Shown in pieces: positions 1 to 7,985 of a stretch of 64,000 nucleotides of DNA. Source of the DNA: Clostridium sp. 26_21 (lineage in GTDB: Bacteria > Bacillota > Clostridia > TANB77 > CAG-508); the NCBI GenBank assembly GCA_001915995.1, contig MNRO01000022.1:10546-74545 (forward strand). The letters are read 5' to 3'. Below the pieces are notes generated by a model, which worked only from the letters and a program-made list of their open reading frames with translations, was not told the origin of the DNA and ran no database searches. Within the stretch, counting starts at the first letter, position 1. Each line of letters opens with the position of its first letter. The position numbers and the translations under genes were made by a program.

Positions 1-2549
1 TGGAATATCATTCAACACTTGCAACAATTGAAGAAATTGATAAATTAGATATAAAAGTAACACATACAAGATGTAATGGATGTGAAAATCATTGTCAATT
101 AACAATAAATAGATTTAGTAATGGAAAAAGACATATATCTGGAAACAGATGTGAAAAAGGTGAAGGAATAGTAAATTCACACAAAGATTTACCAAACTTA
201 GTAAAATATAAATATGATAGAATATTTGGATATACACCATTAGAAGAAAAAGATGCACCAAGAGGAACAATAGGAATTCCAAGAGTTTTAAATATGTATG
301 AAGACTATCCATTCTGGTTTACATTATTCACAAATTTAGGATTTAGAGTAATAATATCAGAAAAAAGTACAAGAAAAATATATGAAAAAGGTATTGAATC
401 AATGCCATCTGAATCTGTATGTTATCCAGCAAAATTATCACATGGACATGTTATAAGTCTAATACAAAAGGGAATTAAAACAATATTTTATCCATGTATA
501 CCATATTCAAGAAAAGAATATGATGATGCAAATAATAGATATAATTGTCCAATTGTAATATCTTATTCAGAAGTATTAAAAAATAATATTGAAGAATTAA
601 AAAGTGAAGATATCAAATTCATAAATCCATTTTTACCATTTGAATCAAAAGCATTATTAAAAAGAATGATGGAATTACCTGAATTTAAAGAATATAATTT
701 TAACAAAAAAGAATTAAAAAATGCAATAGAAAAAGCTCAACAAGAATATCAAAAATGTAGACAAGATATACATGAAAAAGGAAAAGAAACAATTGAATAT
801 ATTGAAAAAAATAATTTAAAAGGAATTGTATTAGCAGGAAGACCATATCATGTAGATTCAGAAATAAATCATGGAATAGATACATTAATAACAAGTTTAG
901 GAATGTGTGTATTAACAGAAGATAGTGTGGCAGATAAAGCATTACCAGAAAGACCACTTCGTGTTGTTGACCAATGGATGTTTCATTCAAGATTATATGC
1001 AGCAGCAGATTTTGTAGGTAGACATGATAATTTAGAGCTTGTTCAAATAAATTCGTTTGGTTGTGGAGTTGATGCTGTTACAACAGATGAAGTTGAAGAA
1101 ATTCTAACAAGTTTTGGAAAAATGTATACATTAATAAAAATTGATGAAGTAAATAACTTAGGAGCTGTAAGAATTCGTTTACGTTCATTACTTGCAAGTA
1201 TTAATAAAAGATTAAATAATAAAAAAGATGAAAAAGAAACAGGTGAATATTTCTTAAAGAAAAATCCATTTACAGAAGAAATGAAAAAAGAATATGTAAT
1301 CTTAATTCCACAAATGGCACCAATTCATTTCGATTTTATTGAACCAGTTTTACAAAGTGAAGGATATAAAGCAAAATTATTAAGAGAGTGTACACAAAAT
1401 ACAATTGAAACAGGTTTAAAATATGTAAATAATGATGCATGTTATCCATCAATTATTACAACAGGTCAAATGATAGAAGCATTAGAATCTGGAGAATATG
1501 ATGTAAACAAAACAGCATTAATAATGTCACAAACAGGTGGAGGATGTAGAGCAACAAATTATATAGGATTTATTCGTAAAGCTCTAAAAGACGCAGGTTT
1601 TGGACAAGTTCCAGTAATTTCATTTAATGTTGTCGGAATGGAGAAAAATCCTGGATTTAAGCTAACATTACCATTAGTTGAAAAACTATTAAAATCAATG
1701 GTTTATGCAGATTTATTACAAAAAATGTTATATAAAAATAGAGCTTATGAAAAAAATAAAGGTGAAACAGATAAATTATTTGCAGAATGGATGGAAAAGG
1801 CAAAAAAACTTGCAATAAATAGTAATTCAAAAGAATTTTCAAAAAGTATATATCAAATGGTGGATGATTTTGAAAAAATTGAATGGAAGCAAGGAAAAGA
1901 AAAGCCAAAAGTAGGAATAGTAGGAGAAATCTTAATTAAATATCATCCATTTGGAAATAATTATGTAGCAAATTTATTAGAAAAAGAAGGTGCAGAAGTT
2001 GTTTTACCAGACTTTATGGGATTTGTTAAATATGTTGCAGCAAATGGAGTAATATCACATCAATTATTAAAAAATAATGGATTGAAATCAATGTTATTTG
2101 ATGTTGCAATAAAATTGATAAATTCATTTGAAAAAGATGCTAAAAAAGCATTAGAAAAATCTAAAAAAGGATATTTACCAACTTGTGATATTTGGCATTT
2201 GGCAGATAATGTAAAATCAGTTTTATCAACAGGAAATCAAACAGGTGAAGGTTGGTTCTTGACAGCTGAAATGCTTGAATATATGGAAAATGGTATTCAA
2301 AATATAGTTTGTGTTCAACCATTTGCATGTTTACCAAACCATGTTGTTGGTAAAGGTGTAATAAAAACTATTAGAGATATGTTCCCAGATGCAAATATTG
2401 TACCAGTTGATTATGATCCAGGTGCAAGTGAAGCAAATCAGACAAATAGAATTAAACTTCTTATGACAGTTGCTAAAGATAATTTGAAAATTAAGCAAAA
2501 AGAAAAAAAGATGACTGAAAAAGAAAATAAAAATAAAGTTAGTATATAA
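1..2549 (+). CDS. CoA-substrate-specific enzyme activase / 2-hydroxyacyl-CoA dehydratase D-component-like fusion protein, C-terminal part (5' end upstream of window)
   Basis: Frame 3 is open from nt 3 with no stop and runs into ORF 294..2549. A Cys cluster (CNGCENHCQ...RCEKGEG) is followed by an HgdB-like region typical of activase-related fusion proteins. Confidence 0.6.
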   Translation, partial: EYHSTLATIEEIDKLDIKVTHTRCNGCENHCQLTINRFSNGKRHISGNRCEKGEGIVNSHKDLPNLVKYKYDRIFGYTPLEEKDAPRGTIGIPRVLNMYEDYPFWFTLFTNLGFRVIISEKSTRKIYEKGIESMPSESVCYPAKLSHGHVISLIQKGIKTIFYPCIPYSRKEYDDANNRYNCPIVISYSEVLKNNIEELKSEDIKFINPFLPFESKALLKRMMELPEFKEYNFNKKELKNAIEKAQQEYQKCRQDIHEKGKETIEYIEKNNLKGIVLAGRPYHVDSEINHGIDTLITSLGMCVLTEDSVADKALPERPLRVVDQWMFHSRLYAAADFVGRHDNLELVQINSFGCGVDAVTTDEVEEILTSFGKMYTLIKIDEVNNLGAVRIRLRSLLASINKRLNNKKDEKETGEYFLKKNPFTEEMKKEYVILIPQMAPIHFDFIEPVLQSEGYKAKLLRECTQNTIETGLKYVNNDACYPSIITTGQMIEALESGEYDVNKTALIMSQTGGGCRATNYIGFIRKALKDAGFGQVPVISFNVVGMEKNPGFKLTLPLVEKLLKSMVYADLLQKMLYKNRAYEKNKGETDKLFAEWMEKAKKLAINSNSKEFSKSIYQMVDDFEKIEWKQGKEKPKVGIVGEILIKYHPFGNNYVANLLEKEGAEVVLPDFMGFVKYVAANGVISHQLLKNNGLKSMLFDVAIKLINSFEKDAKKALEKSKKGYLPTCDIWHLADNVKSVLSTGNQTGEGWFLTAEMLEYMENGIQNIVCVQPFACLPNHVVGKGVIKTIRDMFPDANIVPVDYDPGASEANQTNRIKLLMTVAKDNLKIKQKEKKMTEKENKNKVSI

Positions 2550-2555
2550 GCAAAT

Positions 2556-2585
2556 AGCCCACACAGATTTTATTCTGTGTGGGCT
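2556..2585. terminator. G+C-rich hairpin (AGCCCACACAGA / TCTGTGTGGGCT) between convergent genes
   Basis: Perfect 12-bp stem seen directly in the sequence. Its G+C-rich composition contrasts with the AT-rich surroundings. Confidence 0.55.
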
Positions 2586-2607
2586 ACTGGTTAGAGGTTA
2601 AAAATCA

Positions 2608-2919
2608 TTACTTAATGCTATCTTCCTCATCTTCGGGGGAAACAGGAATTGCAATCAAATCTTTTGCACAATATCTGTATTCCCAGCCAAACTCGTGTAA
2701 GAATTGATGGAACTGATCTTTAGGAAAGAGTTTGTTCTCGTACAAACGACAGAATAGAACATATTCATTCCAAGTGCTTAAAGAAACGAAAATAGTTTGG
2801 TTCGGATAGATATCAACAGCAGAATCATCCTGCGAATCCAGAAAATTGCTAATAAGCTTTTTGGCTTCATTCAGTAAAGATTCCTGAATATTGTTGACCC
2901 AAATGTTAGACTTTTTCAT
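2608..2919 (-). CDS. hypothetical small protein (104 aa), G+C-enriched; paralog of 3143..3514
   Basis: ATG at 2919 has an AGGAGG ribosome-binding site 9 nt upstream. Shared motifs with the 3143..3514 product (LFPKDQFHQFLHEFGWEY vs LFPKEEFNTWLREHHWKL). A consensus promoter lies upstream. Confidence 0.55.
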   Translation of the reverse strand: MKKSNIWVNNIQESLLNEAKKLISNFLDSQDDSAVDIYPNQTIFVSLSTWNEYVLFCRLYENKLFPKDQFHQFLHEFGWEYRYCAKDLIAIPVSPEDEEDSIK

Positions 2920-2987
2920 TACTGTCCTCCTTGTTGCATAACGCAACACTATAATAATATACCAAAAACCATTAAGGTTCTATACAT

Positions 2988-3016
2988 ATTATAAAACATT
3001 TTACATAAAATGTCAA
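2988..3016 (-). promoter_or_regulatory. sigma70-type promoter TTGACA-N17-TATAAT with an ACAT-AAA-ATGT inverted repeat in the spacer
   Basis: Reverse complement of 2988-3016 reads TTGACAttttatgtaaaatgtttTATAAT. The 19-mer ttttacataaaatgtcaaa (2999-3017) is identical to 3617-3635. Confidence 0.6.
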
Positions 3017-3098
3017 AAACTATTTGTAGTTTTGATTGTTTTTCGAAATTTCTTATCGGTAATTTTTTCGAAAATTGGTATAAATAAAATTATAACTA

Positions 3099-3131
3099 AA
3101 GGGCGCTTATCCTTTTCAGGAAAGCGCCCTT
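3099..3131 (-). terminator. G+C-rich hairpin AAGGGCGCTT...AAGCGCCCTT downstream of the 3143..3514 gene
   Basis: 10-bp perfect stem immediately after the minus-strand stop. Confidence 0.5.
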
Positions 3132-3142
3132 AGTGCTATGGG

Positions 3143-3514
3143 TTAATTGATTTCAATGAGCCTGATTTTGTCAACCAAACAGTTGAGCTTCCAATGGTGC
3201 TCCCTCAACCAAGTATTGAATTCTTCTTTGGGAAAAAGAGGATCCTTGATAATGCTGAGAAAGTGAAGCTTGTTCAGAGGGAGAGACGATTCATCAACTT
3301 CAAACTGATCTTCGAAGAGGTACAGAACGACTGTAGAGTCATCGAAGAGGTTCATGTTCTTGTTGGAACTTTTAGAGTCTGATTCATACATAGAACTGAC
3401 TTGGTCGAAGATGATTTTTTTTGCATCTTCGAGCAACAGTTCCTTAGAACGTCTGTTGATAGTGAGGAACATCTGCGGGGTAGGTAACATGTCAAAGTTC
3501 GTAGTGTTTTCCAT
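3143..3514 (-). CDS. hypothetical small protein (123 aa), G+C-enriched; paralog of 2608..2919
   Basis: ATG at 3514 has a GGAGGG ribosome-binding site 8 nt upstream. Motifs are shared with the 2608..2919 product, and a consensus promoter lies ~100 nt upstream. Confidence 0.55.
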   Translation of the reverse strand: MENTTNFDMLPTPQMFLTINRRSKELLLEDAKKIIFDQVSSMYESDSKSSNKNMNLFDDSTVVLYLFEDQFEVDESSLPLNKLHFLSIIKDPLFPKEEFNTWLREHHWKLNCLVDKIRLIEIN

Positions 3515-3605
3515 GATTCAAGCCCTCCATAGCTTGCTTGTAGATAACTAAATAAATCAGTCATCGGATAATAAATATAACCACTTTTATGGCTACATAC
3601 ATTTT

Positions 3606-3634
3606 TATTATACATCGTTTTACATAAAATGTCA
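3606..3634 (-). promoter_or_regulatory. sigma70-type promoter TTGACA-N17-TATAAT, second copy of the same promoter/operator-like architecture
   Basis: Reverse complement reads TTGACAttttatgtaaaacgatgTATAAT and contains the same ACATAAAATGT palindrome-like core. Confidence 0.6.
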
Positions 3635-3654
3635 AATTATGTAAGATGAAATTT

Positions 3655-3683
3655 GTTGACAAAATCTGGGGGTGAGTATATAT
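3655..3683 (+). promoter_or_regulatory. sigma70-type promoter TTGACA-N17-TATATT driving the small hydrophobic ORF; divergent from the 3143..3514 gene promoter
   Basis: TTGACA at 3655-3660, 17-nt spacer, TATATT at 3678-3683. Confidence 0.5.
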
Positions 3684-3715
3684 TAAATATGCCTTTCGCC
3701 AAAAGGTAGAAGGGA

Positions 3716-3737
3716 GGTGTTATTATTTTGCACGATT
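3716..3737 (+). repeat. direct repeat copy 1 (GTGTTATTATTTTGCACGATTT), covering the Shine-Dalgarno 3' edge and TTG start of the small ORF
   Basis: Identical to 3838-3857 except for two extra T. Confidence 0.7.
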
Positions 3738-3795
3738 TAATTGACTTGATAAAACTTATATTGATTTACTACATAGTAAAGCTTTTGAGTAAATA
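3727..3795 (+). CDS. 22-codon hydrophobic peptide (M)HDLIDLIKLILIYYIVKLLSK, candidate type I toxin (Fst/Ibs-like)
   Basis: GGGAGGTG ribosome-binding site at 3711-3718 lies 8 nt before TTG 3727. The ORF encodes a single predicted transmembrane helix with a Lys tail. A terminator follows directly and a promoter lies upstream. It is too short for the ORF track. Confidence 0.35.
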
Positions 3796-3804
3796 GCAAA
3801 AAGA

Positions 3805-3837
3805 AAAGACTAAGAATTGGAGGTTCTTAGTCTTTTT
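3805..3837. terminator. bidirectional rho-independent terminator (AAGACTAAGAA-ttggagg-TTCTTAGTCTT + T6)
   Basis: 11-bp perfect stem with a T-run on the + side and a TTCTTTTTG run on the - side. Confidence 0.65.
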
Positions 3838-3857
3838 TGTGTTATTATTGCACGATT
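3838..3857 (+). repeat. direct repeat copy 2 (GTGTTATTATTGCACGATTT), immediately after the terminator
   Basis: If transcribed from the minus strand, it yields RNA complementary to copy 1 and so to the small ORF's start region. Confidence 0.7.
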
Positions 3858-3878
3858 TGTTTTACAATTGCTATAATT

Positions 3879-3907
3879 ATATTAGCATAATTATAAAAAA
3901 ATGTCAA
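3879..3907 (-). promoter_or_regulatory. candidate antisense (antitoxin RNA) promoter TTGACA-N17-TAATAT reading toward the bidirectional terminator
   Basis: Reverse complement of 3879-3907 reads TTGACAtttttttataattatgcTAATAT. The predicted ~75-nt antisense RNA would span repeat copy 2 and the terminator. Confidence 0.4.
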
Positions 3908-4035
3908 TGGTAAGAAAATTGTTTTAAAATACTAAATTGTACTGACCTCCCAGTATAATCAAAAAACATCAAAAAAATGGTATAAATATATAAGGTTTAC
4001 AAACGAAACCAAAATTAAGAAAATAAGGAAAAAGA

Positions 4036-5715
4036 ATGGAAAGATTATATAAATATATAGAAATAACAGATTTAAAAGATATGCTAAAAAAATCAGGAGA
4101 AAAATATGGTGAAAAAATAGCATATAAAATAAGACAGGAAAATGGATATAAAGAAATCACACATAATGAAGTAAGAAAAATGGTTGATGGACTTGGAACA
4201 AAATTGATAGATATGGGGTTAAAAGATAAAAGAATAGCTGTAATAGGTGAAAATAGATATGAATGGGAAATAGCATATTTATCAATAGTTTGTGGGACAG
4301 GAACAGTAGTACCATTAGACAAATCATTACCAGAAAATGAATTAGAAAGTTTAATTGAAAGATCAAAAGCAGAAGCAATAATATGTTCACAAAAATATGT
4401 CGAAATATTAAAAAAGACAAAATTAAAATATATCATTTCAATGGATTTAGAAAATGATAAAGATGGAATTATATCACAAAAAAGACTTATATCAGAAGGA
4501 ATACAATTAGTAAAATCTGGAGATACAAGTTTTACAAATGCCAAAATTGATAATGAAAAAATGAGTATAATGTTATTTACATCTGGAACAACATCAATAT
4601 CAAAAGCAGTAGCACTTTCACATAAAAATATATGTTCAAATTTAATGGATATATCATCAATATTAGATGTAAATTCATCAGATGTGTTTTTATCATTTTT
4701 ACCATTACATCATGTATTTGAATGTACAGTTGGATTTTTATTTTCATTATATGTTGGAGCTGAAACAGTATTTTGTGATGGAATTAGACATATTCCAGAA
4801 AACTTAGCTGAATATAAGGTTTCTGTAATGGCATCTGTTCCAGCAATATATGAAAGATTATTCAAAATAATAAAAAAGCACTTAGAAAAACAAGGAAAAG
4901 TTGAACAAATACTTAAAGATGAAGAAAAATATAAAGATTCAAGTATGGAAAAGAAAAAAGAAGTATTTAAAGAAATACATGATTCGCTTGGTGGAAATAT
5001 AAAACTATTTATAAGTGGTGCAGCAAGTTTAGAACCAAGTATTGAAGAAAAATTTAGAAGGCTTGGATTTAATATGGTTCAAGGATATGGATTAACAGAA
5101 ACATCACCAGTTGTTGCAATAGGAAATAAAAAATATCATAAAACAGGATCTATTGGAAAATGTGTTCCAAGTGATGAAGTGAAATTATTAGATGTAAATA
5201 AAGATGGAATTGGAGAATTAGCAGTAAAAGGACCTAATGTAATGATTGAATATTATGAAAATAAAGAAGCAACAGAAAAAGTATTAAAAGATGAATGGTT
5301 TCAAACTGGTGATTTAGCAAGAATTGATGAAGAGGGTTATATATTTATTTGTGGAAGAAAGAAAAGTGTAATTGTATTAAAAAATGGTAAAAATATTTTT
5401 CCAGAAGAAATGGAAACATTAATTAATAAAGAAGATGGTGTAGAAGAATCATTTATTTTTGGAAAGCCAATTTCAAAAGATCCAAATGATATAAAGATTT
5501 TTGTAAAAATTGTTTATAACAAAGAAAGTTTTGAAGGAAAAACAGAAACTGAAATAAAAGAATATTTTAATGAAAAAATAAAATCAATAAATAAAACAAT
5601 GCCACATTATAAAGCAATTAGAGGAATTATTATTTCAGACAAACCATTAATAAAAACTACAACAAATAAAATTAAAAGAGAAAAAAATCTAGAACAAATA
5701 ATGAAGGAGTTATAA
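4036..5715 (+). CDS. AMP-dependent acyl-CoA (or acyl-ACP) synthetase, long-chain fatty acid ligase family
   Basis: AMP-binding motif LFTSGTTSISKAV, a 559-aa product, and first position in the fab operon. Confidence 0.8.
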   Translation: MERLYKYIEITDLKDMLKKSGEKYGEKIAYKIRQENGYKEITHNEVRKMVDGLGTKLIDMGLKDKRIAVIGENRYEWEIAYLSIVCGTGTVVPLDKSLPENELESLIERSKAEAIICSQKYVEILKKTKLKYIISMDLENDKDGIISQKRLISEGIQLVKSGDTSFTNAKIDNEKMSIMLFTSGTTSISKAVALSHKNICSNLMDISSILDVNSSDVFLSFLPLHHVFECTVGFLFSLYVGAETVFCDGIRHIPENLAEYKVSVMASVPAIYERLFKIIKKHLEKQGKVEQILKDEEKYKDSSMEKKKEVFKEIHDSLGGNIKLFISGAASLEPSIEEKFRRLGFNMVQGYGLTETSPVVAIGNKKYHKTGSIGKCVPSDEVKLLDVNKDGIGELAVKGPNVMIEYYENKEATEKVLKDEWFQTGDLARIDEEGYIFICGRKKSVIVLKNGKNIFPEEMETLINKEDGVEESFIFGKPISKDPNDIKIFVKIVYNKESFEGKTETEIKEYFNEKIKSINKTMPHYKAIRGIIISDKPLIKTTTNKIKREKNLEQIMKEL

Positions 5716-6279: not shown

Positions 6280-7221
6280 ATGAAAATAGGATTTTTGTTC
6301 CCAGGTCAAGGTTCACAATATGTTGGAATGGGAAAAGATTTATATGAGAAATATGAGGAAGTTAGAAATATATATGATAGAGTAGAAAATTTGACAGGAG
6401 TAGATGTGAAAAAGATATCATTTGAAGGTCCTGAAGAAGAATTAAATCAAACTAAAAATACTCAACTTTGTATTTTAACAATGAGTTTAGCAATATTAGA
6501 AATACTTAATAAAAATGGAGTAAAAGCAGAAATGTCAGTAGGTTTAAGCCTTGGTGAATATTCTGCACTAATATATAGTGGAATATTAAATTTTGAAGAT
6601 GGAGTAAAATTAGTTCAAAAACGTGGAGAATATATGCAAAATTTAGTTCCTGATGGTGAATGGCTAATGTCAGCTATACTTGGAATGGGAGAAGATGAAG
6701 TTGAAGAAGTATGTTCAAAAATTCAAAATGGATTTGCAGTACCAGTAAATTTTAATTGCCCAGGTCAAATTGTAATTTCAGGTGATAAAGATGGAATAAA
6801 AGAAGCAGAAAATATAGCTAAACAATATGGTGCTAGAAGAGTTATTGAATTAAAAACATCAGGTCCTTTTCATACTATAAAATTACAAAAAGCATCTGAT
6901 GAATTAAGAAAAGAATTAGATAAAATAAAATTTAATAATGGAGATTCAAAAGTTATTAAAAATATAGATGCTGAAGTTTATACAGAAAATGATGATATGA
7001 AAGATATTTTAGCAAAACATATAATTAGTCCTGTTAGATTTTCAAAGAGTTTGGAAAATATGATTAAACTTGGTGTTGATACTTTTATTGAAATAGGGCC
7101 AGGTAAGACATTGTCTGGATTTGCTAAAAAGATTAAAACAGATAAAGAGATAAGGATTTTTAATGTGACAGATGTGGAAACATTGAAAAACGTTTTATAT
7201 CAAGTTCTGGAAAAAAATTAA
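6280..7221 (+). CDS. fabD: malonyl CoA-ACP transacylase
   Basis: GFLFPGQGSQYVGMG active-site region and GLSLGEYSAL serine motif. Confidence 0.9.
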   Translation: MKIGFLFPGQGSQYVGMGKDLYEKYEEVRNIYDRVENLTGVDVKKISFEGPEEELNQTKNTQLCILTMSLAILEILNKNGVKAEMSVGLSLGEYSALIYSGILNFEDGVKLVQKRGEYMQNLVPDGEWLMSAILGMGEDEVEEVCSKIQNGFAVPVNFNCPGQIVISGDKDGIKEAENIAKQYGARRVIELKTSGPFHTIKLQKASDELRKELDKIKFNNGDSKVIKNIDAEVYTENDDMKDILAKHIISPVRFSKSLENMIKLGVDTFIEIGPGKTLSGFAKKIKTDKEIRIFNVTDVETLKNVLYQVLEKN

Positions 7222-7250
7222 TTATTTTTCAATAAGAAAGGTGGAAGAAA

Positions 7251-7985
7251 ATGGAGAAATGTGCATTAATAACAGGTGCAACAAGAGGAATAGGCAAACA
7301 AATAGCAATAACATTAGCAAAACAAGGCTATAATATTGCATTAAATTATAGAAAAGAAAATGAAGAACTAGAAAATACCAAAAAAAAAATTGAAGAAATT
7401 GGAGTTCAAGTTATAGCAGTAAAAGGTGATGTTGCAAATTTCGAAGAGTGTGAAAACTTTGTAAAACAAGTAATAGAAAGATTTGGACAAATAGATGTAT
7501 TAGTAAATAATGCAGGAATTACAAAAGATATGTTACTTATGAGAATGAAGAAAGAAGATTTTGAACAAGTAATAGATACTAATTTAGTTGGAACATTTAA
7601 TGTTACAAAAAATGTAGTGCCATATATGATGAAAGCTCGTTATGGAAGAATAATTAATATTTCATCTGTTGTTGGAATTTCAGGTAATGCAGGTCAAACA
7701 AATTATTCTGCATCAAAAGCAGGAATTATCGGATTTACAAAGAGTTTGGCTAAAGAGATTGCTTCAAGAAATATTTTAGTAAATGCTGTTGCTCCTGGTT
7801 TTATTGAAACAAATATGACTGATGTTTTAAAAGATGATGTTAAACAGGAAATTGCCAAAAATATTCCTTTGAAGAGAATGGGAACTGCTCAAGATGTTGC
7901 TAATGTTGTTAAGTTTTTAGCTTCTGATGATAGTTCTTATATTACTGGGCAAGTTATTAATGTTGATGGTGGTATGCTTATGTGA
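7251..7985 (+). CDS. fabG: 3-oxoacyl-ACP reductase
   Basis: Short-chain dehydrogenase Rossmann motif TGATRGIGK, NAG motif, catalytic YSASK. Confidence 0.9.
   Translation: MEKCALITGATRGIGKQIAITLAKQGYNIALNYRKENEELENTKKKIEEIGVQVIAVKGDVANFEECENFVKQVIERFGQIDVLVNNAGITKDMLLMRMKKEDFEQVIDTNLVGTFNVTKNVVPYMMKARYGRIINISSVVGISGNAGQTNYSASKAGIIGFTKSLAKEIASRNILVNAVAPGFIETNMTDVLKDDVKQEIAKNIPLKRMGTAQDVANVVKFLASDDSSYITGQVINVDGGMLM

Follow-up and report, generated by a model that had tools for sequence, protein, structure and literature searches.

Small orphan gene cassettes in a strain-variable chromosomal slot of a gut Clostridium carry a promoter module found across low-GC gut Clostridia

Three described kinds of system come closest to the locus reported here. 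Prophage morons carry their own promoter and terminator, have an atypical composition, lie between unrelated genes and are present or absent by strain. The orphan immunity arrays of polymorphic toxins (acquired interbacterial defence, type VII secretion system LXG) consist of tandem paralogues for small, acidic, cytoplasmic, non-catalytic proteins, with presence and absence at strain level and ancient alleles under purifying selection. Integron cassettes, which are usually promoterless, hold small orphan genes of atypical composition in a defined slot and have conserved ends with a 3' hairpin. These likenesses recur in two small minus-strand genes, A and B, which we studied in a 64,000-nt stretch of DNA from Clostridium sp. 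26_21 (contig MNRO01000022.1, positions 10,546 to 74,545; hereafter the window, with a G+C content of 25.8%). Unlike morons, A and B occupy a chromosomal slot between housekeeping genes without prophage or mobile context, have no phage, plasmid or IMG/VR homologues, and are framed by a non-coding chassis (promoter, leader and terminator) that is more conserved than the coding sequence. They differ from orphan immunity arrays in having a full promoter for each gene and no toxin, recombinase or secretion-system gene nearby; they were not found to resemble any immunity family in sequence or fold, and the functional parallel is one that we infer. In contrast to integrons, no integrase or attI is seen, the genes have their own promoters, the 3' hairpin looks like an intrinsic terminator, and the junctions are consistent with simple microhomology. 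The genes form a new orphan family, arranged in the manner of morons or of an immunity island. The more interesting result, in our view, is the promoter module with its invariant spacer, which marks cassettes of this kind across gut Clostridia. The account that we favour, and hold to be probable with appreciable room for doubt, is that A and B are independent, self-contained cassettes in a recombination-prone slot, equipped with a clade-wide promoter module.

In every strain examined, the slot is found at the same site, between a gene of the CoA-dehydratase-activase type and the AMP-ligase/fab operon. When comparing strain haplotypes (contigs with the exact protein B, plus contigs found through more distant family members), we found that the content of this slot varies widely. 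Gene B occurs alone, with gene A absent, in contigs L001, L003, L006 and L007, and together with A in L002, L004, L005 and L008-10. At the same syntenic site, L011 has three paralogues (113 aa, P0006 and 121 aa) and a gene for a 523-aa membrane protein, L140 has a single 109-aa member (P0009), and L150 has a single A-like member (P0011) without B and without the neighbouring type I toxin-antitoxin-like module. The genes that flank the slot are nearly identical to those of the window, with a synonymous divergence (dS) of 0.03-0.09 and 97-99% amino-acid identity. The comparison of B with P0006 gives a saturated dS of 2.6, with a non-synonymous divergence (dN) of 0.18 and a dN/dS ratio (ω) of 0.07, and B and P0009 share 38% amino-acid identity. 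Near-identical flanks combined with saturated dS between members show that the slot is filled by anciently diverged alleles or paralogues under purifying selection, shuffled within essentially one species, and it offers a clean natural example of such shuffling around a conserved non-coding chassis. A and B are therefore separate cassettes and not one insert. The first-pass annotation of this DNA had described a single acquired block that included the toxin-antitoxin-like module; this does not hold, given that A, B and the module are gained and lost separately and that other paralogues take their place in the slot. Its broader view of the genes as accessory, strain-variable and of foreign-looking composition is borne out by the comparison of the slot among related contigs and by third-position composition; we saw neither a universally conserved block of typical composition nor a match to a housekeeping family. 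The neighbours of the slot are housekeeping genes, the gene for the 523-aa membrane protein and the type I toxin-antitoxin-like module, and no recombinase was found among the called genes within ±10 kb.

The promoters of A and B resemble strong Gram-positive sigma-A promoters such as Pveg of B. subtilis in their consensus hexamers, 17-bp spacing, -16 TRTG element and A-rich upstream sequence, and differ from them in an extra 12-nt sequence, TTTTATGTAAAA, that is invariant across unrelated genes and genera. Both are TTGACA-N17-TATAAT promoters of the sigma-A type that match all 12 hexamer positions, and the window holds four such perfect promoters against 0.10 expected. As had been noticed on the first pass, the two share an identical 19-mer, TTTTACATAAAATGTCAAA, with an inverted repeat. 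We located exactly two copies of this 19-mer in the window (2999-3017 and 3618-3636), with no further copies at up to three mismatches; by inspection, the repeat is ACAT-N3-ATGT and can be extended to TTTGACAT-TTT-ATGTAAAA, with 7 of 8 positions pairing. When one genome per GTDB species was scanned with TTGACATTTTATGTAAAA-N5-TATAAT, more than 119 loci came up, nearly all of them in uncultured low-GC gut Clostridia and four or five of them in several single genomes; a rough estimate puts the chance expectation below one match. The 119 unique instances have nothing in common beyond these 29 bp except mild upstream A-richness and an N5 of the form T-R-T-G-n, which is the Gram-positive -16 element. 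In IMG/VR, the module was present in only 4 contigs.

Three kinds of evidence on the 12-mer are independent of the search seed, namely its counts in and out of register, its near-variants and the family cassettes found by protein similarity. In the 0.96 Mb of module loci there are 135 copies of the 12-mer, 130 of which stand in the exact promoter register, leaving 5 outside it against about 4 expected by chance, and the other perfect promoters at the same loci are without the motif. Among the near-variants, the ATGT arm and the last A change most and the T-tract and A-tract persist, which makes the palindrome the weaker part of the motif. Since the family cassettes were found by protein similarity, the DNA search brings no bias into their comparison; the identity between them is 98% in the 12-mer, against 46% for N5 and 50% for the first 12 nt after the -10 hexamer, indicating a constraint on the spacer as strong as that on the hexamers. 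The sole family member without the module is the most divergent one, P0013. The 19-mer is thus the central part of a promoter module shared across the clade, TTGACA-TTTTATGTAAAA-T(R)TGn-TATAAT, whose 12-nt spacer is as tightly kept as the hexamers and stands in a fixed register. No match to the motif was found in the literature searched, we know of no described promoter class with an invariant 12-nt spacer, and by eye none of the Spo0A, CodY, Rex, CcpA, TnrA, CtsR, WalR, PlcR, DegU, LexA and Fur operators known to us fits it in both sequence and spacing. An invariant spacer of this kind implies that RNA polymerase or an associated factor reads it, or that a clade-wide regulator does.

The genes behind the module are mostly small (median 115 aa) and, among the 60 that we scanned, about 80% have no Pfam domain. 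The Pfam-matched remainder includes Veg, LemA, AbrB/MazE-like, Xre, Spo0A_C-only and BlaI-like proteins, with veg, a classic constitutive gene, driven by the module in two genomes. Compared with their own genomes, module genes show a greater excess of G+C at third codon positions (GC3) than genes behind other near-consensus promoters (+0.091 versus +0.032, p 3e-4), and their orientation relative to neighbouring genes is about 50:50. No stable-RNA gene was found downstream of the module at the 14 loci without a predicted open reading frame (ORF). If the module works as we suppose, it would be a sequence tag for a hidden pool of orphan accessory genes that are small, turn over fast and use non-host codons, and a portable, very strong promoter for uncultured or hard-to-engineer low-GC gut Clostridia. 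Some genomes have several module-driven small genes between the core genes jag and mnmE, near the replication origin. In another genus (L034 1400-2710 and 6512; L025 1558-2790), several module-driven orphan genes are packed between jag and mnmE, and one lies between dnaA and rnpA, close to the replication origin. A more unusual cargo is seen in L117, where the module (at 1160+) drives a divergent adenylosuccinate-synthetase-like gene, judged so by eye, with a GDEGKGK motif.

The remaining parts of the chassis are also better conserved than the proteins. Where the proteins share 35-46% identity and the coding DNA about 60%, identity rises to 70-82% in the leaders and to as much as 94% in the terminators. 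The B-type leader has a predicted fold of -26 kcal/mol (z -3.75), for which RNAalifold gives 14 pairs, 2 of them compensatory, a modest covariation. A covariance model of this leader, run on the window and 99 loci, scored strongly only at family genes, with matches in L043, L026 and L040 that are weak or lie inside coding sequence; the leader is thus not a general element. Rfam gave only sub-threshold matches for the leaders and terminators in the region 2000-4600. In the terminator hairpin of B, the inner loop is conserved and the outer stem covaries; every haplotype with gene A has this loop in inverted orientation. We also considered this hairpin as a dispersed repeat and rejected the idea, as it occurs only at these cassettes. 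In two independent rearrangements, the junction falls directly after TTGACAT: one is a 1.75-kb insertion with the gene for the 523-aa membrane protein in L011 (7760-7800 and 9508), and the other is a deletion in L150 (4905-4925) that fused the -35 element of the antitoxin-RNA promoter to the promoter spacer of the A-like gene. L011 also has a fragment of the activase 3' end duplicated between cassettes. The junctions and the duplication fit recombination through shared short sequences but do not amount to proof of a dedicated mechanism.

A separate observation on the chassis concerns B-type genes, in which the 3' motif CCATAGC follows the stop codon directly (3132-3140) and has its complement, GCTATGG, in the Shine-Dalgarno region of the leader (3525-3531). 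The pair stands at the same positions in L001, L011, L140 and L147, and the 121-aa cassette of L011 has the compensatory pair GCTATGT/ACATAGC; the pair could reflect a 5'-3' interaction or a shared protein site. A general complementarity between 5' and 3' untranslated regions (UTRs) of module cassettes was tried and dropped, with 17.7% against 11.8% in controls giving no clear signal. Beyond the activase gene, just upstream of window position 1, we noted a second hypervariable cassette that encodes a secreted Cys-rich protein of 164-192 aa (GC3 0.28-0.44; L001 14951-15445, L002 15477-16019, L011 15584-16162 and L140 10539-11069). It has its own near-consensus promoter and a pair of complementary motifs, GTGTGCTAT in the 5' UTR and ATAGCACAC at the 3' side, the latter standing before a GC hairpin.

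The composition of A and B sets them apart from their host. A has a G+C content of 0.356 and B one of 0.401, whereas five neighbouring genes lie at 0.24-0.29 and the window as a whole at 0.258; the enrichment had been seen on the first pass, and codon-level analysis places the excess at codon position 3. Against a host GC3 of 0.094 ± 0.023 (maximum 0.165) in the 40 long ORFs of the window, which served as the baseline, A reaches 0.385 and B 0.54, or 12-19 standard deviations over the host mean. The A-ending codons favoured by the host are avoided in A and B (ATA 0/16, CCA 0/9 and GTA 0/10), TTA accounts for 15% against 74% in the host, and CTC (33%) and CTG (19%), all but unused in the host (0.00), are common; CAG, AAG, AGG, CCG and TCG are used as well. 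All family members have a non-host third-position composition (A3 0.16-0.34 versus 0.55 and C3 0.17-0.37 versus 0.02), to a degree that differs among them, and in L017, from a different genus, the homologue has a GC3 of 0.67 where the genome around it has about 0.25. Such codon bias would have arisen by import or by selection.

The family itself is very small. An exhaustive HMMER search with the family profile returned 7 proteins among 1.84 billion representatives, a word-indexed search found 11 clusters among 5.8 billion (5.8e9), and the JGI metagenome collection held only 2 family loci. Exact or near-exact copies of A and B occur in human-gut metagenome assemblies (Hadza and other cohorts), and one source lists A as a hypothetical protein of the metagenome-assembled genome Clostridium sp. 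26_21. By tblastn, A and B had no match in GenBank phages or PLSDB plasmids, and IMG/VR contained no relatives of the family. The first-pass annotation could not place the proteins in a known family by eye, and profile and structure searches confirm that they belong to none: Pfam gave no matches at E up to 10 and no Imm family, NCBIfam gave noise only (11-15 bits against cut-offs of 120-750), the best PHROGs hit (E 0.26) was not significant, a PDB sequence profile search reached E 0.72 at best, and Foldseek found nothing at E <0.06 for the models of A and B against the PDB or of B against BFVD. The PADLOC model PDC-M63A matched gene A only (E 0.0022) and was dropped, being matched by 1 of 15 family members. 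BLASTP aligns A and B only over the C-terminal 36 aa (33% identity, E 4e-5); comparison of the A-type and B-type profiles by hhalign (probability 97.3%, E 2.1e-11, 78 columns) upheld the homology proposed earlier and shows that they are real distant paralogues over nearly their whole length.

Both proteins are acidic (A, pI 4.66, with an EDEEDSIK tail; B, pI 4.89), without a signal peptide or hydrophobic segment. In the AlphaFold2 model of A, which is a confident one (pLDDT 84.8, pTM 0.74), a long helix at the N-terminus is followed by a β-hairpin, a pair of helices, another β-hairpin and an acidic tail that is disordered; the model of B is weaker (pLDDT 68) and has the same order of elements. 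The invariant family positions (A31, L66, F94, L103 and W108 in B numbering) belong to the hydrophobic core, and the family has no conserved residues that look catalytic. Weak structural matches were often to winged-helix domains, none of them significant and none justifying an assignment. We conclude that this is a very small, lineage-restricted orphan family of acidic, cytoplasmic alpha/beta proteins. Their most likely role is stoichiometric binding, as in inhibitor or immunity proteins, in strain-level or mobile-element conflict, the only grounds for this being their size and charge, the lack of catalytic residues, the paralogue arrays and the presence/absence polymorphism. About 6 kb from a family member, L017 has a 163-aa ORF (6937-7428) that by eye resembles an AbiQ/ToxN-like abortive-infection toxin.

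In the account that we favour, each cassette comprises a sigma-A-type promoter of full consensus, a 5' leader capped by a hairpin, and a small ORF followed by an intrinsic terminator. Judging from the junctions, the content of the slot would change by homologous or microhomology recombination, for which the conserved chassis and the activase 3' end may supply the shared sequence. The module most likely acts as a very strong promoter, with its spacer probably read by the RNA polymerase holoenzyme or a polymerase-bound factor of these Clostridia, or else by a conserved promoter-coupled regulator, and the 5' hairpins may stabilize the mRNA. Several points weigh against this account. Invariance of the 12-mer among the 119 loci is true by construction because it was the search seed, no spacer-reading factor or candidate regulator was found, and promoter strength, start site and expression are all deduced from sequence. 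The lean of the weak structural matches towards winged-helix domains would also fit a nucleic-acid-binding or scaffold role, and the binder role has neither a toxin partner near A or B nor a fold match by Foldseek behind it. No donor lineage for the non-host codon usage turned up in any database searched, which makes selection on the mRNA as possible as import. A possible, though in our judgement less likely, explanation is a clade-wide regulon, in which a conserved DNA-binding protein of these low-GC gut Clostridia would use the spacer and -35 element as its operator and so co-regulate accessory, mostly orphan genes including A and B, for example by silencing or inducing them together. Twelve spacer bases as invariant as the hexamers argue for it, given that RNA polymerase normally needs no specific spacer, as do an imperfect dyad (TTGACAT-TTT-ATGTAAA or ATTTTA-TG-TAAAAT), the several copies per genome, the association with compositionally atypical small genes and not with strong promoters generally, and the DNA-binding nature of some module genes themselves (Xre, AbrB/MazE-like, Spo0A_C-only and BlaI-like). 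However, an operator that essentially never occurs free of the promoter register, whose near-variants lose mostly the ATGT arm and keep the T-tract and A-tract, and whose module also drives the constitutive veg fits this explanation poorly, and no candidate regulator was found, nor a fit to the operator consensus sequences that we know. Another explanation, implied by the first-pass annotation, is a single horizontally acquired cassette (2.55-4.03 kb, with the toxin-antitoxin-like module) whose two genes have a palindromic operator of their own and are repressed together through it, possibly by the proteins that they encode. We find this very improbable in spite of the identical 19-mer with its inverted repeat, the foreign-looking composition and a predicted order of secondary structure that resembles a winged-helix-like alpha/beta pattern. 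Besides the separate inheritance of A, B and the toxin-antitoxin-like module, the motif stands at 119 or more loci, before unrelated genes and in many genomes without the family, which excludes autoregulation by A/B or a cassette-specific repressor. The proteins are acidic (pI 4.7-4.9), 0-1 residues are basic in the candidate recognition helix (EEFNTWLREHHW in B, DQFHQFLHEFGW in A), and there is no significant fold match.

The codon usage bears on a further explanation, that A and B are ordinary, very highly expressed resident genes shaped by translational selection and have nothing to do with foreign origin or conflict. Many of their preferred codons are C-ending in two-fold and T-ending in four-fold families (AAC, TTC, ATC, CAC, ACT, TCT, GTT and CGT), a pattern typical of highly expressed Firmicute genes, and the combination of perfect promoters, 5' stabilizer-like hairpins and strong terminators, together with the use of the same module by veg, points the same way. 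We give this little credence, however, given the use of CTC/CTG, CAG, AAG, AGG, CCG and TCG, with CTC and CTG essentially unused by the host, a GC3 so far above the host mean, and the strain-variable distribution of genes that are missing from most relatives. In the boldest alternative, the 29-bp module would be not just a strong promoter but also the 5' handle, with the hairpin terminator as its 3' counterpart, by which a cassette-exchange system moves and swaps promoter-equipped orphan genes of non-host codon usage among low-GC gut Clostridia. The result would be an integron-like gene pool with the recombination site built into the promoter. Junctions after TTGACAT, the invariant spacer, the inverted terminator loop and the random orientation of cassettes would all fit; we consider such a system improbable.

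The features of the locus are listed in Table 1. Apart from A, B and a small gene at 22230-22478, every clearly coding gene in the window is on the plus strand. The two minus-strand genes had been placed correctly on the first pass, with an extra GTA codon counted in the length of A. A is an A-type and B a B-type family member. On the upstream side, the slot is bordered by the 3' part of a 1434-aa gene of the BcrAD/BadFG + DUF2229 activase type (the CoA-dehydratase activase), and on the downstream side by genes for an AMP-dependent ligase and a biotin-protein ligase and by fab/acc genes. The GC-rich terminator hairpins reported before are upheld by their folding energies; a simple terminator scan called neither of them because their U tails are interrupted. 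The stem of the hairpin at 2553-2588 shows covariation in L068, L150 and L151, and the layout of the gene A leader recurs in L151.

Table 1. Features of the slot and of the adjoining toxin-antitoxin-like module (window positions)
Feature	Position	Strand	Remarks
GC-rich hairpin, terminator common to the convergent activase gene (+) and gene A (-)	2553-2588		-25.6 kcal/mol, z -7.1
Gene A	2608-2919	-	103 aa; ATG 2917-2919; AGGAGG upstream
5' leader of gene A	2920-2981	-	Two small hairpins, AGGAGG ribosome-binding site; weak fold, z -1.0
Promoter module of gene A	2988-3016	-	TTGACA-TTTTATGTAAAA-TGTTT-TATAAT
Terminator hairpin of gene B	3099-3131	-	-25.4 kcal/mol, z -6.1; preceded by CCATAGCAC (3132-3140)
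Gene B	3143-3514	-	123 aa
B-type 5' leader, conserved	3515-3600	-	5'-terminal hairpin, second hairpin, then CTACAAGCTATGGAGG
Promoter module of gene B	3607-3635	-	TTGACA-TTTTATGTAAAA-CGATG-TATAAT
Type I toxin-antitoxin-like module	3656-3907		Outside the cassettes
Promoter of the toxin-antitoxin-like module	3656-3684	+	
Hydrophobic ORF of the toxin-antitoxin-like module	3728-3796		22 aa
Bidirectional terminator of the toxin-antitoxin-like module	3802-3838		
Convergent promoter of the toxin-antitoxin-like module	3879-3907	-	

The toxin-antitoxin-like module resembles par/Fst-type loci in its convergent promoters, shared bidirectional terminator, short hydrophobic peptide and repeat-based antisense complementarity, and differs from them in a peptide of only 22 aa without a Pfam match and in not being co-inherited with A or B. 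It is through the repeat ttattatt(t)tgcacgattt (3721-3740 and 3841-3858) that the antisense RNA is complementary to the region of the toxin translation start. Rfam returned only RefA9 for this module, below threshold (26.8 versus 49 bits). The module is kept in L001, L002, L011 and L146 and absent from L150; it stays on the AMP-ligase side, with the 523-aa gene between it and the family genes in L011 and L140. Its retention beside the AMP-ligase gene independently of the family genes shows that it is not part of the cassettes.

The third small minus-strand gene of the window (22230-22478) encodes 82 aa with a GC3 of 0.30 and without a Pfam match. Its promoter, TTGACT-N17-TATAAT (~22538-22566), has a spacer other than TTTTATGTAAAA, and with a 5' hairpin, AGGAGG and a GC-rich terminator (~22180-22215) the gene has a layout like that of the cassettes.

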